This document shows positions 56,359 to 63,617 of a stretch of 64,000 nucleotides of DNA, piece by piece. This DNA is from Deltaproteobacteria bacterium. Its GTDB lineage: Bacteria; Myxococcota; UBA727; VGSZ01. The stretch spans positions 158,374-222,373 of the forward strand of contig JACOUT010000005.1 in NCBI GenBank assembly GCA_016177705.1, written 5' to 3'. Position numbers and translations under genes: made by a program. How positions within the stretch are numbered: the first letter of the stretch is position 1; every line of letters begins with the position of its first letter. A model generated the notes under the pieces. That model saw only the letters and a list, made by a program, of their open reading frames with translations, had not been told where the DNA came from and did no database searches.

Positions 56359-57312
56359 TCAGGCGTCGCGCTCGACGAGCAGACGCACCGCGATGCCCGC
56401 GAGCACGATGGTGGCATGTCGCCCGCATTCCACGGCGCGTCGTCCCCTGGTCAAGACCACCCGGCGCGCGCCGTCCTGCACGGCGGTGCCGTTGGTGGAG
56501 CCGACGTCGGCCACCAAGAGCCCGTCGCCGCGCGCTGCCACCCAAACGTGCACGCGCGAAATGCGCGAGTCGACGCCGCCGCCGACGCAGCGCTCGAGCC
56601 GTCCGAGCAGCACGCCCTCTGACAGCGCGTGCTCGCCGACCGCCACGCGGCAGGCGTCACGCGCCCCGCCGTCGAGCGCGACGCCGAGGTGGGTCGCACC
56701 GTCCCGCCAGGCGCGCATCGGCGCCGGCACCGGCGCGCACACCGAGCGATCCCACGAGGCAACCTGGACCTCGGGCTGCGGTGCCAGCGGCAGCACGGCG
56801 AGGTCGAGCACGGCGCGCGCGCGCTCGACGCCGGCGTCCACCCGCTCGCCGGCGGCGAGCGGGATCGCGAGCACGTCGGCGGTGCCGGCGCCGAAGCGCA
56901 CCGCGCCCTCGGCGAGCACGCGGCGCAGGCCGTGCTCGCCGTCCTGTCGCAGCCCCTCCTCGGTGCGCAGGTCGACGACGTCGACGCAGCCGGGGCGCCG
57001 CTCCTGGTCGAGCAGCAGGAGCGCGTGGCGCAGCGAGGCGCCGAGCACCGGCCCGACGTCGCACTCGAGGTGCGCACCGAGCGATACCGCGAGCGGGCCG
57101 CCGTCGGGCGGCGCGGTGCGCAGCCAGCAGCCGACGCGATCGCGCGAGCGCTCGTCGCGCCAGCTCGCGACCACCACCAGCGCCGGCTGATCGAGCGCGG
57201 CGCGGCGCGCGCCCGCCAGGTCGGCGGTGATGGTGTCGAGGCGGTCGAGGTAGGGACGCAGGCTGGTGCGTGCGCGCGCTGGCGCGACCGCGGTGCGGGT
57301 GAAGCTCATGGT
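56359..57312 (-). CDS. FHA-domain protein
   Basis: Assigned from the ATG at 57312. A C-terminal FHA domain is present (LLVADVGSTNGTAVQDGARRV). Confidence 0.55.
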   Translation of the reverse strand, partial: TMSFTRTAVAPARARTSLRPYLDRLDTITADLAGARRAALDQPALVVVASWRDERSRDRVGCWLRTAPPDGGPLAVSLGAHLECDVGPVLGASLRHALLLLDQERRPGCVDVVDLRTEEGLRQDGEHGLRRVLAEGAVRFGAGTADVLAIPLAAGERVDAGVERARAVLDLAVLPLAPQPEVQVASWDRSVCAPVPAPMRAWRDGATHLGVALDGGARDACRVAVGEHALSEGVLLGRLERCVGGGVDSRISRVHVWVAARGDGLLVADVGSTNGTAVQDGARRVVLTRGRRAVECGRHATIVLAGIAVRLLVERDA

Positions 57313-57462: not shown

Positions 57463-58128
57463 TCAGATGTCCTTGCCGCGCAGCCGCGCGCGCTGCTCGG
57501 CGACGCCGTGCCCCGCCTCCGCGACCGGCACGAACTGCCCGCGCTCGTCGGAGAAGGCGTGCACGGCGCCGGTCTCGATGTCGTAGACCCAGGCGTGCAG
57601 TGTCAGCTCGCGCGCGGCCAGCTTGGCCATCACCGACGGGTGCGTGCGCAGGTTCTCGATCTGACACATGACGTTCTCCTCGACGCAGACGTCCTGCAGC
57701 GCGTCGGCGTCGAGGCCGGGGTAGTGCTTGGCGAGCACGCGGCGCGTGCCCTCGGCATACGTGAGCCACTGCTTCATGGCGGGCAGCTTCGCCACCTTCT
57801 CCGGGTGGAGGATGGCCGACATGGCGCCACAGTGCGTGTGGCCGCAGACGATGACGTCGCTGACGTCGAGGCACTCGAGCGCGTACTCGATGGTGGCGGC
57901 AGCGCCGCTCTCCTGGCCCCAGGGTGGGATCAGGTTGCCGGCATTGCGCACGATGAACAGGTCGCCCGGGTTGGTCTGCGTGATCAGGTTGGGCGCGATG
58001 CGCGAGTCCGAGCAGGTGATGAACAGCGCGTCGGGCGCCTGCCCGTCGACCAGGCGCTTGAACAGCTCGCGCTGCGGTCCGAACACGCCCGACTGGAAGC
58101 GATGGATGCCGTCGATGAGCTGGCGCAT
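57463..58128 (-). CDS. Beta-class carbonic anhydrase
   Basis: It carries the zinc ligands in the conserved context (ITCSDSRIAP and VCGHTHCGAM). Confidence 0.85.
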   Translation of the reverse strand: MRQLIDGIHRFQSGVFGPQRELFKRLVDGQAPDALFITCSDSRIAPNLITQTNPGDLFIVRNAGNLIPPWGQESGAAATIEYALECLDVSDVIVCGHTHCGAMSAILHPEKVAKLPAMKQWLTYAEGTRRVLAKHYPGLDADALQDVCVEENVMCQIENLRTHPSVMAKLAARELTLHAWVYDIETGAVHAFSDERGQFVPVAEAGHGVAEQRARLRGKDI

Positions 58129-58246: not shown

Positions 58247-60658
58247 GTGCCAGTCATCGACCGCCACTCCGTCCGCCGCCGTCGCCTCGAGGGCGAGCAG
58301 GGCAACGTCGGCGGCACGGGCACGGTTCATCGCACCGGCAACGTCGAGGGCGGCGGCGACCCCACGCAGGTCGGCGGGGTCCAGCTCGAGGCGCCGGTGC
58401 CGTCGGCGGGCGGCACGCTGCATGCGCCGGTCGGGCCGGCCAAGAACCCCGCGCTGCGCGCGCACCAGCTCCAGCGCGCGCTCGAGACCAAGGGCGGCGC
58501 GCGGCTGCTGCACGGCGTCGGCGAGGCGTCCGCCGAGTGGGCGCGCGCCAGCCTGGCCGGCAGCGCCGTCATTCGCGTGTTCGCACGCACGCCCGAAGCG
58601 CCCTTCGCCGTGCTCGAAGCCGCGGCGCGCAAGGAGCTGCAGCGCCACGGGCTTGCCGGTCACGACGTCAGCGCGCTGTTTGCTCGATTGGTCGAGATGG
58701 GCGTGCTCGCCGAGACCGGCGATCGCGCCGCGCCCTACGCGCTCGCGGTCACCAAGGAGGAGGCCGCCTTCCAGCTCGGCGACGTCGGCGCGCTGCAGGG
58801 CGCCCTGACCGCGGCGCTCAAGGACGTCGCCAAGGACGCGCCGCAGGCGCGCGTGCGTTTGCAGAGCCTGCTCTTGCGCTGCGCGCGCGCCAGCGAGACC
58901 TGGCCGCGCTACCCGGTGGAAGCGCGCTGGCCGTTCCTGAAGGCGGTGGCCTTGCTCGACAAGCGCGAGCAGTCGCTGCTGTCGGACGCGCTCGCGAGCG
59001 ACCCGCAGTTGCGGCACTTCCCGCTCGTCGACACCACGCTGTTGATGCTGAGCGGCCGCCCCGCCGATGATTGGGTCAAGCAGTACGCGCCGCGGCTCGC
59101 CGGCAGCGCCGTCTACACCGTCGCCGCCGAGGGGTGGTTCGCCGCCGGCGGCCTCGGCCGCGTGCAGCAGTACCACGCCGCCGCCATGAAGCAGCTCGTC
59201 GGCAAGGAGGCGCGCGTCGTCACCATCGAGCCCTTCTACGCCAAGACCGCGCAAGGGCAGGACATCGACTACGGCAAGCTGCCCACGCCGGTGCAGCTCG
59301 GCCCCGCGCCGGAGCACGTCTTCGAGGTGATGGTCGACGGTCGCATGGTGAAGGCCGAGGCGTGGAAGGGCACCACGCCCGAGGGCGTCGAGGCCTGGCT
59401 TCTCAAGGACGCCGACCACCGCCACACCAAGGTCTGCTACGGCTACAACCGCGACGGCCAGAGCTGTTGGGAGGACTTCACCGAGTTCTTCTCGCGCGCC
59501 TCGGCCGAGCTGATGCGGACGCTCGAGGCCAAGGAGCAGCAGACGCGCGGCGCCAGCTACAAGCCGCCGGCGATCATCGCCAACGACGGCCAGGCGGCGC
59601 CCGTGGTGCCCTTCTTGAAAGAGATCGAGAAGCGCGACCCGACGCTCAAGCACGCGGCCACCTGGATGGTGACCCACACCTACAAGAACCGCGGCGTGTT
59701 CGACGGCGTGCAGCAGGCCGACGGCCTGCTCGCGCGCTGGCGCATCCACGACGAGCTGCGCGCCTCGTTCTGGCGCATCGGCGCCGCCGACGTCTCGAGC
59801 GGCGGCGTGCGAAACGCCCACGGTGCCTCCGGCGTCTCGGCCGTGCACGTCGATGAGGTCAACCCGATCGATCCCAAGGTCGCGCTGGTCGCCATCACCA
59901 ACGGCGACAACCGCGTGGCGTCCTCCTCGGTGTTCCGCGGCCTGCTGCCGCCGGGCGCCGACGCCGACGCGCCCACGCCTGCCGAGCTGGCGGTAGCCAA
60001 GCGCTCGGCCAAGCAGGCGCTCGGGCTCGACCCAAACCAGCCCGTCATTTCGTACTCGGGCCGGCTGGTCGACGAGAAGGCCGGCCGCCAGCGCGCCTTC
60101 ACCGACGACAACCTGCGCGCGCTCGTCAAGCAGGGCGCGCAGGTGGTGCTCTACGGCAACGTGCAGGCCTTCGCGGCCAGCGAGGCCATCTGGCGCGACC
60201 TGCAGCGCCTGGCCGACGAGCTCGCCAAGGGCCCGGGGCCTGGCCGGCTGGTGCTCAAGAGCGGCTGGGGTGTCGCCGAGCAGCGGGCGCTGCTCGCTGC
60301 CACCGACGTGCAGGTGCAAGACAGCGACCGCGGTACCGGTGCGGCCGAGTACACCGAGGCCGACGTCTCGGCCAACGGCGGCCTGCAGATGGGCCCGCCG
60401 TGGATCGAGGGCATCATCAACCGACAGGGCGTGCTCGTCGATCGCGAGAGCCCCGGCAGCGGCAACACGCTGATCCCGGCCGACGCGCAGCCCTCGTCGT
60501 ACCTGGAGACGCTGTCGTGGGCCGTCGAGCGCTTCAACGACGGCACGCTGTCGCAGTGGCAGGCCTCGAGCGTGCGGCTGTCGCGCAGCCTGGAGGCGCT
60601 GCTCACCTCGAGCGAGTACCTGCGCCAGCTCGATCGGGTCTTGAGCCTGACCGAGTAG
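58247..60658 (+). CDS. Large GT5-like (glycogen/starch-synthase-fold) glycosyltransferase domain protein
   Basis: It has a GlgA-like KxGGLGxV motif (AAEGWFAAGGLGRVQQY) and a Rossmann-fold GT-B pattern. The start is not determinable, because the 976-aa ORF begins inside the carbonic-anhydrase gene. The GTG at 58247 is tentative. Confidence 0.5.
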   Translation: MPVIDRHSVRRRRLEGEQGNVGGTGTVHRTGNVEGGGDPTQVGGVQLEAPVPSAGGTLHAPVGPAKNPALRAHQLQRALETKGGARLLHGVGEASAEWARASLAGSAVIRVFARTPEAPFAVLEAAARKELQRHGLAGHDVSALFARLVEMGVLAETGDRAAPYALAVTKEEAAFQLGDVGALQGALTAALKDVAKDAPQARVRLQSLLLRCARASETWPRYPVEARWPFLKAVALLDKREQSLLSDALASDPQLRHFPLVDTTLLMLSGRPADDWVKQYAPRLAGSAVYTVAAEGWFAAGGLGRVQQYHAAAMKQLVGKEARVVTIEPFYAKTAQGQDIDYGKLPTPVQLGPAPEHVFEVMVDGRMVKAEAWKGTTPEGVEAWLLKDADHRHTKVCYGYNRDGQSCWEDFTEFFSRASAELMRTLEAKEQQTRGASYKPPAIIANDGQAAPVVPFLKEIEKRDPTLKHAATWMVTHTYKNRGVFDGVQQADGLLARWRIHDELRASFWRIGAADVSSGGVRNAHGASGVSAVHVDEVNPIDPKVALVAITNGDNRVASSSVFRGLLPPGADADAPTPAELAVAKRSAKQALGLDPNQPVISYSGRLVDEKAGRQRAFTDDNLRALVKQGAQVVLYGNVQAFAASEAIWRDLQRLADELAKGPGPGRLVLKSGWGVAEQRALLAATDVQVQDSDRGTGAAEYTEADVSANGGLQMGPPWIEGIINRQGVLVDRESPGSGNTLIPADAQPSSYLETLSWAVERFNDGTLSQWQASSVRLSRSLEALLTSSEYLRQLDRVLSLTE

Positions 60659-60700
60659 CTCGGCGGCCAGCACTGAGCCTCCGAAAAGGTACCCAGAAGC

Positions 60701-60732
60701 ACCCATAAAGTGTTATGGGTACTTATGGGTAG
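60701..60732. promoter_or_regulatory. Perfect palindrome ACCCATAA-AGTG-TTATGGGT plus an extra TTATGGGTA half-site, overlapping the Fic gene start
   Basis: cacccataaagtgttatgggtacttatgggtagc was read directly from the sequence. Local GC is about 45% against about 70% in the rest of the window. Coordinates are accurate to +/-1. Confidence 0.6.
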
Positions 60733-61783
60733 CATTCTGGATGCCGACCTCGACGATCTGGAGGCGCTCGTGGTCACCCGCGAGCTGCTCGGCCTGATCG
60801 CCAAGGTCGACGAGCTGAAGGGCCGTTGGTCGGCGCTCGGCACGCTCGCGCCCGAGCGGCTCGGCGCCCTCAAGAAGGTCGCCACCATCGAGTCGGTCGG
60901 GTCCTCGACGCGCATCGAAGGCGCGACCCTGAGCGACGTCGAGGTAGGCAGGCTGTTGCGCGGCCTCGACGTGCGCTCGTTCCGCTCGCGCGACGAGGAG
61001 GAGGTCGCCGGCTACGCGCGCGCCATGGAGCTGGTGTTCGACAGCTACACCGAGATGCCGCTGACCGAGAACCTGATCAAGCACCTCCACCAGGTGCTCT
61101 TGCAGTTCGCGAGCAAGGACCGGCGCCACCGCGGCGAGTACAAGAAGCTGCCGAACGACGTCCAGGCGTTCGGGCCCGACGGTACGCCGATCGGCGTGGT
61201 GTTTCGCACCGCCACGCCGTTTTCGACCCCGCGGCGGATGCAGGCGCTGACGTCGACGACCGCAGCGGCGCTCGCCGACGGCCGCGACCATCCGCTGCTC
61301 GTCATCGGCGTCTTCGTGTTGCGCTTCCTCGCCATCCACCCGTTCCAGGACGGCAACGGCCGCCTCTCACGCATCTTGACGACGTTGTTGCTGCTGCGCG
61401 CCGGCTATCTCTACGTGCCCTATTCGTCGCTCGAGCGCGTCATCGAGGAGAACAAGGAGGGCTACTACCTGGCGCTCCGACATGCGCAGCACGACCGCGG
61501 GCGTCTCGGCGAGTGGCTGGTGTTCTTCCTGCGCGCGCTCCGCCGGCAACAAGAGGTGCTGGTCACGCGCGTCGAGCGAGAGCGACTGATGGACCCGATG
61601 CCGGAGCTGCAAGAGCGCCTGCTGGCGCTCGCCCGGGAGCACGGGCGCCTGACCGTGCGTGCGGCGACCGCTGCGCTCGAGGCCAACCGCGAGACCGTCA
61701 AGGCCAACATCGGCAAGTTGGTCGACAAGCGCCTGCTGGTGCTGCGCGGCAAGGGCAAGGGCGCTTGGTACGAGCCAGCGTGA
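60725..61783 (+). CDS. Fic/DOC-family protein (putative AMPylating toxin-like)
   Basis: It has the canonical Fic motif HPFQDGNGRLSR and a C-terminal winged-helix-like tail. The ATG start is the sixth codon of the listed ORF. Confidence 0.8.
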   Translation: MGSILDADLDDLEALVVTRELLGLIAKVDELKGRWSALGTLAPERLGALKKVATIESVGSSTRIEGATLSDVEVGRLLRGLDVRSFRSRDEEEVAGYARAMELVFDSYTEMPLTENLIKHLHQVLLQFASKDRRHRGEYKKLPNDVQAFGPDGTPIGVVFRTATPFSTPRRMQALTSTTAAALADGRDHPLLVIGVFVLRFLAIHPFQDGNGRLSRILTTLLLLRAGYLYVPYSSLERVIEENKEGYYLALRHAQHDRGRLGEWLVFFLRALRRQQEVLVTRVERERLMDPMPELQERLLALAREHGRLTVRAATAALEANRETVKANIGKLVDKRLLVLRGKGKGAWYEPA

Positions 61784-61816
61784 ATCGCGTGGCGCGCCTG
61801 CGCTACCGTTGTCGCC

Positions 61817-62320
61817 GTGGCCAAGCGACCGACCATCGACAAGCGCGCGCTGCTCGCGCAATTGCGCGCCGACGAAGAGCGCGCGCTCGCCACCATGCAG
61901 CAGGCCGCCGACATCGCGCGCGCCGCGGCGGCGCACGAGGAGATGCGCCCCGAGAACGACAAGGACACGCGCGCGCTCGAGGCCGGCTACCTCGCGGCCG
62001 GGCAGTCGGCGCGCGCCGCCGAGCTGCGCAAGAGCATCGCCGCCCTCGCCGCGCTGCAGCCGCGCGCGTTCGCGCCCGGCGACCGCATCGACGTCCTCGC
62101 CGTCGTCGACGTCGAGGATGCGGACGACGCCAAGGCGGCCCGCTACTTCATCGCCCCGGTCGGCGGCGGCAAGAAGCTCACGGCCGCAGGCTGCACGCTG
62201 CTCGTCGTAACGCCCGGCTCACCGCTCGGCGATGCGCTGATGGGGAAGCGCGCCGGCGACGTCGTGGAGGTGCTGCTCGGCGGCAAGCGCCGCGAGCTCG
62301 AGGTCGTCGCCGTCTGCTAG
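61817..62320 (+). CDS. GreA/GreB-family protein (coiled coil plus FKBP-like C-domain)
   Basis: It has an N-terminal helical region and a C-terminal GreA-C-like segment (FAPGDRIDVLAVVDVED...RYFIAPVGGG). It starts with a GTG. Confidence 0.6.
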   Translation: MAKRPTIDKRALLAQLRADEERALATMQQAADIARAAAAHEEMRPENDKDTRALEAGYLAAGQSARAAELRKSIAALAALQPRAFAPGDRIDVLAVVDVEDADDAKAARYFIAPVGGGKKLTAAGCTLLVVTPGSPLGDALMGKRAGDVVEVLLGGKRRELEVVAVC

Positions 62321-62402
62321 CGGCGCGGGCGACCGCCGCGACGGTACGGCGGTCCGCGCCCAGCCGGTTGACCGGGCGCGACCTCGATGGGAATGCCGCT
62401 GC

Positions 62403-63617
62403 GTGGAGTCACCGCACGACCGCTGGCAGCGCCTGCGCCGAGCCATCAAGGACGTGCCGCTGCCGTGCGCGCTGGTCGACCTCGACGCGCTCGAGCAGAA
62501 TGCGCGCACGCTCGATGCCATCGCGCGCGACCACAAGAAGACGCTGCGCCTCGCCACCAAGTCGGTGCGCTGCCCGCGCCTCATTCGCCTGATCCTCGAG
62601 GGCGGGCAGGGCACGGTGCGCGGGCTGATGACCTACACCGCCAGCGAGACCGCCTTCCTCGCCGCCGAGGGCCACGACGACCTGCTGCTCGCCTACCCGA
62701 CGGCGCAGCGATCGGACGCCGAGCTGCTCGCGGGGCTGTGCGCGCAGGGCAAGACCGTGGCGGTGGTGTGCGACGACGAGGTGCAGCTCGCCGTGCTCGA
62801 CGCCGCCGCCGCGCGGGCGGACACCAAGCTGGGCATCTGCGCCGAGCTCGACGTCTCCTATCGGCCGGCGCCCGGCCTGCACCTCGGCGGACGCAGGAGC
62901 CCGCTGCACACGCCCGCCGACGTGGTCGCGTTCGCCGCGCGCGTGCGCGCGCACGCGCACCTCAGGTTCGACGGCGTCATGGCCTACGAAGGCCACATTG
63001 CGGGCTCGACCGACAAGAACCCGTTTACGCCCGTGATGAACGTGCCCAAGCGCCTGGTGAAGCTGCTGTCGAAGGACAAGGTGGCGCACACGCGCGCACA
63101 GGCGGCGAGCGCGCTACGCGCGGCCGGGCACGAGCTGCGCGTGGTCAACGGCGGCGGCACCGGCAGCCTGCGCTGGGCCAGCGACGAGGACGCGCTCACC
63201 GAGGTGACGGCGGGTTCCGGTTACGTCGACAGTCAGCTCTTCTCCTACTACCGCGACCTGCACCTCGAGCCCGCGGCCTACTTCGCGCTGCAGGTGGTGC
63301 GCCGGCCCGCGCCGGGCATCGTCGCCTGCCACGGCGGTGGCTACGTCGCCTCCGGCGAGGCGGGCGTCGACCGCCTGCCCACACCGGCGTTGCCGGCCGG
63401 CGGCGCGCTCATCGGCTTCGAGGGCGCGGGCGAGGTGCAGACGCCGGTGGTGCTGCCGCGCGGCGTCGACGTCGCGCCCGGCGAGCCGTTCTTCTTCCGC
63501 CACGCCAAGGCGGGCGAGCTGGCTGAGCACTTCACCGAGTACCTGCTCGTGCGGGGCGACCGCATCGTCGAGCGGGCGCCCACCTACCGCGGCCTCGGCC
63601 ACTGCTTCCTCGGATGA
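62403..63617 (+). CDS. PLP-dependent alanine-racemase-fold enzyme (D-serine dehydratase-like/D-threonine-aldolase-like)
   Basis: It has an alanine-racemase N-domain pattern with a Lys in LRLATKSVRCP and a C-terminal DSD1-like beta domain. Confidence 0.65.
   Translation: MESPHDRWQRLRRAIKDVPLPCALVDLDALEQNARTLDAIARDHKKTLRLATKSVRCPRLIRLILEGGQGTVRGLMTYTASETAFLAAEGHDDLLLAYPTAQRSDAELLAGLCAQGKTVAVVCDDEVQLAVLDAAAARADTKLGICAELDVSYRPAPGLHLGGRRSPLHTPADVVAFAARVRAHAHLRFDGVMAYEGHIAGSTDKNPFTPVMNVPKRLVKLLSKDKVAHTRAQAASALRAAGHELRVVNGGGTGSLRWASDEDALTEVTAGSGYVDSQLFSYYRDLHLEPAAYFALQVVRRPAPGIVACHGGGYVASGEAGVDRLPTPALPAGGALIGFEGAGEVQTPVVLPRGVDVAPGEPFFFRHAKAGELAEHFTEYLLVRGDRIVERAPTYRGLGHCFLG

Follow-up and report, generated by a model that had tools for sequence, protein, structure and literature searches.

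Phased repeat arrays at the start of a winged-helix Fic gene as a probable self-operator

Fic enzymes that carry a winged helix are widespread, and their DNA targets have been mapped only for CccR and narrowed to a 100-bp fragment for SoFic. CccR of Yersinia pseudotuberculosis (YPK_0951, PDB 7XUX) footprints inverted repeats over the -35 and -10 boxes of its own gene, which it represses (PMC9755527); SoFic of Shewanella oneidensis (SO_4266, PDB 3EQX), as a dimer, binds specifically to the 100 bp that directly precede its own gene, according to a preprint (bioRxiv 10.64898/2026.07.09.737422); and CbFic2 of Coxiella burnetii (PDB 8CIL) couples the binding of DNA to its dimerisation and activity (PMC10628234). 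Here we examine a 64,000-nt stretch of a Deltaproteobacteria bacterium contig (JACOUT010000005.1; this whole stretch is called the window below), in which an AT-rich palindrome lies at the start of a Fic-family gene whose product is predicted to end in a winged helix. We consider it probable that this palindrome is the self-operator of the enzyme and that the gene is negatively autoregulated. A self-regulated winged-helix Fic enzyme is a known kind of system, and it is the family-wide layout of the operator that is apparently undescribed: the searchable literature (subscription journals lay mostly outside the search) held no description of a three-repeat layout with 10- and 12-bp spacing in direct or inverted pairs, of its integration with a leaderless promoter, or of residue-to-base covariation. 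The outcome is a concrete and testable operator model for the whole family.

The plus-strand sequence of the element, inside the 66-nt gap before the Fic gene, is GGTACCCAGAAGCACCCATAAAGTGTTATGGGTACTTATGGGTAGCATTCTGGATG. The element and the gene are laid out as follows:

60677-60744, no strand: extended imperfect palindrome (repeat finder), with 32-nt arms (60677-60708 and 60713-60744) that are 78% complementary around the centre AGTG
60678-60686: very weak third position of the distal array
60690-60708, minus strand: distal (upstream) inverted repeat array, TTCTGGGTA at 60690-60698 and TTATGGGTG at 60700-60708, 10 bp apart
60713-60743, plus strand: proximal repeat array, TTATGGGTA at 60713-60721, TTATGGGTA at 60723-60731 and TTCTGGATG at 60735-60743
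60725-61783, plus strand: Fic-family gene, 352 aa from the ATG at 60725, which lies inside repeat 2

At the centre is a perfect 8+4+8 palindrome, ACCCATAA (60701-60708), AGTG and TTATGGGT (60713-60720), which the initial annotation of this DNA had noticed together with a third half-site. The coordinates of the palindrome, 60701-60720, check out, and the half-site was found as a full TTATGGGTA at 60723-60731. Two more copies had been overlooked: a fourth of the TTATGGGTA type on the minus strand, TACCCAGAA at 60690-60698, with one mismatch, and a fifth, weaker one, TTCTGGATG at 60735-60743, 12 bp past the fourth in line. When at most one mismatch is allowed, four copies of TTATGGGTA lie within 42 bp, two per strand and with 10-bp spacing, and these are the only four in the 64 kb; 0.25 would be expected, and four or more occurred in none of 100 shuffles. 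With up to two mismatches, the element remains the sole TTATGGGTA cluster in the window. The element is two opposed arrays of phased repeats and not a simple two-half-site operator. The earlier description of it as a textbook operator survives in its essence, in that repeat arrays are tied to the gene across phyla and their core covaries with the winged helix (see below), but not in its layout.

This arrangement sets the locus apart from the described operators. That of CccR is one 10-bp inverted-repeat pair, AGATAATCAT-N26-ATGATAATCT, whereas the window has four to five copies of a different 9-mer, phased at 10/12 bp, in arrays 4 bp apart. The 300 bp upstream of SoFic, as given in Table S2 of the preprint (bioRxiv 10.64898/2026.07.09.737422), contain five copies of ATGTCGA(T), at -136 (minus strand), -107, -68, -56 (minus strand) and -28, three of them in the bound fragment, and the same sequence holds, further upstream, four copies of TATAGA/TCTATA. 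The core of the SoFic repeats is TCGACA, against TGGGTA in the window.

The family to which the window gene belongs is large, with at least 8000 database clusters matched at E < 1e-20, and we compared 80 loci from genomes, 80 from metagenomes, the contigs of three close relatives (L161-L163) and two plasmid examples (L164 and L165). Its hosts include Myxococcota-like bacteria, Acidobacteriota, Bacteroidota, Cyanobacteria/Melainabacteria, Planctomycetota, Lentisphaerota and all classes of Proteobacteria, and it is found on 67 plasmids as well; because the hosts span so many phyla and the gene is also carried by plasmids, the element travels with the gene and not with the host. Upstream regions read by eye have arrays of repeats of about 10 bp against the start codon in nearly all lineages. 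Counts of exact k-mers captured such arrays too poorly and were replaced by a phased-triplet test free of any assumed motif, which asks for three 8-mers that resemble one another, 10 and then 12 bp apart, between -130 and +5 of the start, with a score of at least 17 out of 24. Plus-strand triplets passed this test in 55 of 74 genome loci and in 54 of 73 independent metagenome loci (together about 74%), and triplets in either orientation did so in 58 of 75 genome loci, against a background of 1.9e-4 per position, or about 0.05 expected per locus. The proximal array of the window, with its spacing of 10 and then 12 bp, follows the family pattern and scores 20/24.

The arrays can also be described through their core. 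The degenerate form [TC][GC]G[GAC]T[AG] occurs 4.4 times per -100 to +10 region against 1.5 times per background window, and neighbouring same-strand cores lie 10 bp (n = 91) or 12 bp (n = 40) apart over a flat background. The consensus of the family array is wwwTGGGTrT-wwwTGGGTrT-At-wwwTGGnTat, in which the start codon usually follows 27-30 nt after the beginning of repeat 1, and many loci have a second array 34-50 bp upstream. Among 109 loci with arrays, the distal copies are exclusively direct in 47, exclusively inverted in 17 (the window among them) and of both kinds in 4; 33 of the remainder have a proximal array only and 8 have no clear plus-strand pair. In L161, the closest relative (74% identity), the sequence is TACCCATAAATACCCAT-ttatt-TTATGGGTGgTTATGGGTA...TGGGCC-gaac-ATG, which is the inverted-plus-direct layout of the window, and L162 and L163 have variations on it. 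Winged-helix regulators of the OmpR/PhoB type read direct repeats in tandem, placed about a helical turn from one another and several to a promoter. For PhoP these are 11-nt direct repeats (PMC2275107); the analogy is one of layout only, and the window protein has no receiver domain.

Three individual loci deserve mention for themselves. Two clean three-repeat arrays each are present on a plasmid of Burkholderia thailandensis (L164, 2900-2982) and on the Agrobacterium plasmid pAoF64/95 (L165, 2890-2975), where the family members are annotated as 'DUF977 family protein' and where, in L164, TAATAT stands 7 nt ahead of the ATG; being plasmids of cultured strains, both are convenient experimental models. 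In a Nitrospira homologue (L076), the repeats are TTATCGACA and share their core with the copies in the SoFic promoter.

The protein itself has the following parts:

60905-60922, plus strand: inhibitory-helix motif S61-T-R-I-E65-G66, of the form (S/T)xxxE(G/N), N-terminal to the Fic core
61337-61372, plus strand: catalytic Fic motif HPFQDGNGRLSR, residues 205-216, canonical HxFx(D/E)GNGRxxR
61604-61777, plus strand: C-terminal winged-helix region, with the recognition helix at residues 322-334 (nt 61688-61726) and the wing loop at 342-347

The 352-aa product is identical to the NCBI 'Fic family protein' of a Deltaproteobacteria metagenome-assembled genome (362-kb contig), and it matches PF02661 of Pfam with 54.3 bits against a cut-off of 24 (E 2.6e-14). 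In the AlphaFold model, whose mean predicted local distance difference test score (pLDDT) is 79, a winged helix is predicted from helices 294-306, 311-318 and 322-334 and a beta-hairpin at 338-351; residues 322-334 form helix 3 and 342-347 the wing loop, and the pLDDT of this region is 83-93. Homologues match PF06163 or PF13412. The top fold matches are SoFic, the Bordetella protein 8UQU, CbFic2 and CccR, with which a sequence search of solved structures concurs, and the Fic fold also matches FICD.

The order of parts (N-terminal helix, inhibitory helix, Fic core, winged helix) is that of SoFic, and the SoFic model of PADLOC was matched over its full length (E 3.7e-45), whereas the SoFic equivalog of NCBIfam, NF046030, gave 60.2 bits against a cut-off of 550, over residues 189-284 only; we classify the protein as SoFic-like in architecture and not as a SoFic orthologue. 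SoFic targets EF-Tu. In PADLOC, 'SoFic' is an anti-phage defence family, to which the window gene is linked by the hidden Markov model match alone, its neighbours being housekeeping-like and not defence-like. The likeness to CccR lies in a class II Fic domain followed by a C-terminal helix-turn-helix (HTH), in separable catalytic and DNA-binding functions (PMC9755527) and in a distant match of fold and sequence (E 5e-6, identity about 20%). CccR is, however, encoded beside effector-immunity genes of a type VI secretion system and targets FtsZ, and no such context is known at the window locus. CbFic2 is likewise a class II Fic protein with a winged helix, but it is activated by generic double-stranded DNA and its substrate is host histone H3 (PMC10628234), in contrast to the putative sequence-specific sites that the window gene has on its own promoter.

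Because the inhibitory motif is on the same chain and N-terminal to the Fic core, the window protein is a class II Fic protein. S61, E65 and G66 are invariant among 30 homologues; AlphaFold confidence is poor around the motif (residues 59-77 have a pLDDT below 50), and the helix geometry is thus not confirmed by the model. The initial annotation had raised the question of intra- versus intermolecular inhibition, and the position of S61-T-R-I-E65-G66 inside the Fic protein answers it: inhibition is predicted to be intramolecular, through the protein's own SxxxEG helix. It had also reported that no classical antitoxin open reading frame (ORF) is visible, and indeed no ORF of at least 40 aa lies between the flanking genes, the gaps being 66 nt upstream and 33 nt downstream, so that a separate small antitoxin gene of the class I FicT/FicA type was not found at the locus. 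The internal inhibitory motif accounts for this absence. Class I FicT/FicA modules and the EcSofic-AS1 pair (PMC12249575) resemble the window system in having a potentially toxic AMP-transferase that needs restraint and in autoregulated expression, as proposed for the window gene; they differ from it in that the window has no separate inhibitor gene, the inhibitory helix being internal, and in that its DNA-binding module is fused to the enzyme and not supplied by the antitoxin. Immediately downstream of EcSofic is a 47-aa antitoxin gene (PMC12249575), whereas the next gene in the window, 33 nt on, encodes a 167-aa protein with a GreA/GreB C-terminal domain.

A strong indication of what reads the repeats comes from the way in which their core varies. 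Across loci it takes the forms TGGGTA, TGGGTG, TGGATA, TGGATG, CGGGTA, CCGGTA, CAGGTA and TGAATA, and the association of each variable core position with every column of a full-length alignment (101 sequences, about 340 columns) was expressed as permutation z-scores. For every variable core base, the top-associated column falls in the recognition helix or the wing: column G346, in the wing, for position 1 (z = 22.7, followed by R322), R322 for position 2 (z = 11.6), I329 (z = 16.1) and V325 (z = 13.3) for position 4, and A327 for position 6 (z = 13.8). At column 346, glycine goes with T1 in 70 of 72 cases and serine or alanine with C1 in 22 of 25; at column 322, arginine goes with G2 in 81 of 84 and proline with C or A in 11 of 13. 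Phenylalanine at column 329 is accompanied by G4 without exception (51/51), and at column 327 lysine is paired with A (22/23) and D, E or Q with G (38/45). The column-327 rule, which was set on the genome loci, held in the metagenome loci (D/E/Q: G 18, A 4; other residues: G 3, A 22), and in nine phylogenetically independent pairs that differ at this column, base 6 was as predicted in five, opposite in none and unchanged in four. For the window protein, G346, R322 and A327 predict T1, G2 and A6, as observed in TGGGTA. Because shared ancestry alone should scatter the top columns over the approximately 340 columns of the alignment, this pattern does not look like mere ancestry, and very probably it is the Fic protein's own winged helix that reads the repeats. 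The proposed residue-to-base code further predicts specificity-swap mutants.

The arrays also stand in a definite relation to the promoter. In 74 of 146 loci, the start codon is preceded at 4-9 nt (mode 7) by the end of a -10-like TANNNT, against 6% at control ATGs, and a Shine-Dalgarno-like motif is present in only 12 of the 146; the -10-like hexamer sits in the 12-bp junction between repeats 2 and 3. From this placement and from the rarity of Shine-Dalgarno motifs, the arrays would overlie the core promoter of probably leaderless genes: Many family members are probably expressed from leaderless transcripts, with the promoter inside the operator. The transcript would then begin downstream of the distal arrays, which favours recognition at the level of DNA.

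Under the model that we propose, the C-terminal winged helix would bind the 9-10-bp repeats with the core TGGGTA, and since these are about one helical turn apart, bound domains would be aligned on one face of the DNA. In the window genome, a plus-strand array of two to three repeats would overlap the start codon, and a minus-strand array of two repeats would oppose it, which would account for the palindrome. Occupancy would cover the core promoter and the translation start and would keep a potentially toxic AMP-transferase at a low level of expression (negative autoregulation), and the internal SxxxEG helix would keep the enzyme itself inactive. In homologues with a -10 hexamer, the proximal array would cover the spacer, the -10 and the transcription start, and bound protein would block RNA polymerase. 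Autorepression had been suggested at the outset. An operator tied to the gene and the precedent of Fic/HTH autoregulation in CccR (PMC9755527) speak in its favour, and that the regulation is repression in the window we infer from the overlap with the start codon and by analogy.

How far the operator covers the translation start depends on which of three in-frame candidates is used: GTG 60710, ATG 60725 or GTG 60770. GTG 60710 begins the longest ORF and is the sole candidate inside the perfect palindrome, whereas ATG 60725, in the second plus-strand repeat, is inside the extended palindrome and outside the perfect one. That the start is embedded in a perfect palindrome, as was first claimed, is thus true of GTG 60710, and for the likely start, ATG 60725, it is true of the extended palindrome only. 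We retained ATG 60725 as the likely translation start because it is the annotated one and because the stretch 60743-60769 has a coding-type composition (GC at 9/9, 2/9 and 8/9 by codon position). In L162, the only ATG likewise lies inside repeat 2. Most homologues start 19-21 codons ahead of the conserved DEFKGxW motif, a position at which the window offers no start codon. At 60741, 5 nt after TAGCAT (a -10-like TANNNT), stands an out-of-frame ATG; it was tried as a displaced ancestral leaderless start and rejected, as the protein alignment locates that start near 60749. A frameshift or an error of assembly was also considered, and there is no need to invoke either. In several homologues among L001-L160, the annotated or longest ORF starts at a repeat ATG (ATGGGTA, ATGGCTA or ATGGATA) and a second ATG stands where the family usually has its start; where databases give members of this Fic family an N-terminal extension, the start may often have been mis-called.

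Several observations weigh against a negatively autoregulated self-operator, or against particular steps of it. GTG 60770 is preceded, 5 nt before it, by a good Shine-Dalgarno sequence, GGAGG at 60760-60764, and a start there would put the operator at least 27 nt upstream of the start and not over it. No -10-like hexamer stands in the window at the distance from ATG 60725 that is usual in the family, and a sigma-70 promoter scan of 60400-62500 found no promoter-like site. The direct-repeat arrays of most homologues do not obviously fit a two-fold symmetric dimer such as those of CccR and SoFic, and the protein may activate instead of repress. The covariation, finally, is in part confounded with phylogeny: For example, the P322 class amounts to little more than a single clade, and column 327 offers only nine independent contrasts.

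A different account of the AT-rich patch is that it marks a low-GC islet, recently acquired, made up of the Fic gene and a GreA-like partner gene. The sharp local drop in GC upstream of the Fic gene is real: The array (60678-60743) has 47% GC and the intergenic stretch 60659-60724 has 54.5%, against 72% for the window, and the array region ranks second-lowest in GC among the 66-nt stretches of the 64 kb. However, the drop is confined to about 66 nt, the extended palindrome being itself the AT-rich patch of the locus, and the Fic ORF has a GC of 0.685 and a GC at third codon positions (GC3) of 0.92, close to the 0.95-0.96 GC3 of its neighbours. Because the low GC is restricted to the operator and the gene resembles its surroundings, there is no compositional signal of horizontal transfer, and the atypical composition that had been read as a sign of horizontal acquisition does not bear that reading. 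Nor is there an insertion signature at the Fic locus, where no adjoining tRNA and no convincing flanking direct repeats were found (the matches are short, GC-rich and of a chance type), and there is no integrase among the neighbouring ORFs examined. What favours acquisition is of another order of time: The family is patchy over phyla and present on 67 plasmid records, 33 of them conjugative, for which reasons horizontal transfer over evolutionary time is likely; and the closest relative, L161, lacks the neighbour genes of the window. Since the GreA-like gene is also missing from all 163 homologous loci, we regard a recently acquired islet as very improbable. Most likely the AT-rich patch is a conserved binding element that is kept even in genomes of 70% GC, with no sign of a recently imported island. 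Alternatively, the repeats might be bound by a different, host-encoded regulator or a nucleoid protein, and the winged helix of the Fic protein might bind something else; nucleoid-associated proteins are naturally drawn to AT-rich patches in a genome of 72% GC. Such a binder can be given hardly any credence, as the element accompanies the Fic gene across phyla and onto plasmids, as core types differ within one host group and recur in unrelated hosts, and as the core bases covary best with the recognition-helix and wing residues of the Fic protein itself. The lesson for genome scanning is that a sharp AT-rich patch in a high-GC genome may be a conserved protein-binding site and not foreign DNA.

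Two further explanations concern what the element does. Control might act on RNA: The palindrome with its 32-nt arms, once transcribed, would fold and bury the start codon, or would terminate the transcript of the upstream glycosyltransferase gene. The region 60670-60750 does fold well as RNA (-30.9 kcal/mol, z = -3.75; none of 200 shuffles folds as well), with ATG 60725 within the 3' arm, but no run of T follows the stem and a terminator scan finds none at the palindrome. The conserved feature of the family is, moreover, direct repeats, which are unable to form a hairpin (47 of 109 loci have direct-only and 17 of 109 inverted-only distal arrays), and the copies occur in either orientation and in many cases precede the likely transcription start, both of which suit the recognition of DNA in double-stranded form; the hairpin is perhaps a mere by-product of inverted arrays, and we hold RNA-level control to be distinctly unlikely. 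The phased sites might instead serve as a platform on which DNA drives the Fic protein to dimerise or oligomerise and so switches AMPylation on or off, which is compatible with autoregulation. DNA binding by CbFic2 induces dimerisation and raises activity more than 20-fold (PMC10628234), the AMPylation of SoFic depends on dimerisation and only the dimer binds its promoter DNA, as the preprint reports (bioRxiv 10.64898/2026.07.09.737422), and several phased sites per locus would suit cooperative assembly. Yet CbFic2 is activated by generic double-stranded DNA of differing GC content and requires no specific site, there is only one cluster in 64 kb, and about 110 loci have sequence-specific sites exactly at the gene's own promoter and start codon, as would be expected of a transcriptional operator; we rate the platform as unlikely, if somewhat less so than the hairpin. 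A wider reading would join such assembly to the self-operator: the operator would be family-wide (three-repeat arrays at 10/12 bp, a -10 in the 12-bp junction, a leaderless start after repeat 3), it would be read by a code in which residue 346 specifies base 1, 322 base 2, 325/329 base 4 and 327 base 6, and the arrays would assemble an active or inactive oligomer and act as an allosteric switch. Taken as a whole, this is a doubtful proposition; if it were true, the operator would link the state of the DNA to AMPylation, for example during phage attack, and would be more than a repressor site.

The gene downstream of the Fic gene, which had been put forward as a co-acquired partner, is the following:

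61817-62320, plus strand: GreA/GreB C-terminal-domain gene (PF01272, E 7.8e-10), 167 aa, 33 nt past the Fic stop

Its identification as GreA-like holds for the GreA/GreB C-terminal domain, the only part of GreA that the protein has, and not beyond it, the protein reaching at most 30.8 bits with the GreA models of NCBIfam, far below the cut-off of 167. The immediate neighbours of the Fic gene are a carbonic anhydrase gene, a glycosyltransferase gene (upstream, with a starch-synthase-type domain and a stop at 60658), the GreA-like gene and an aldolase-like gene, and a tblastn search with all four proteins against the 163 homologous loci gave no match. Being missing from all 163, the GreA-like gene appears to be an unrelated neighbour, and the synteny comparison does not bear out a partnership.

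The upstream flank calls for some caution in gene calling. On both strands between 56250 and 60700, very long ORFs overlap one another (for example one of 1349 aa on the minus strand and two, of 976 and 813 aa, on the plus strand). This is typical of 72-80% GC, and most of these ORFs are not genes; Pfam lends support to just two features, the carbonic anhydrase (minus strand, 57463-58128) and a glycosyltransferase domain that lies within 58700-60658. An ARAGORN call of tRNA-Ala(GGC) at 56589-56679 on the minus strand, 91 nt long and 4 kb from the Fic gene, falls in a stretch of about 80% GC that long overlapping ORFs cover, and is probably spurious. Elsewhere in the window, the 66-nt stretch with the lowest GC of all (44%) is intergenic and contains a perfect 9-nt inverted repeat, TCCGTTAAA-N17-TTTAACGGA at 2012-2046, which looks like another operator.

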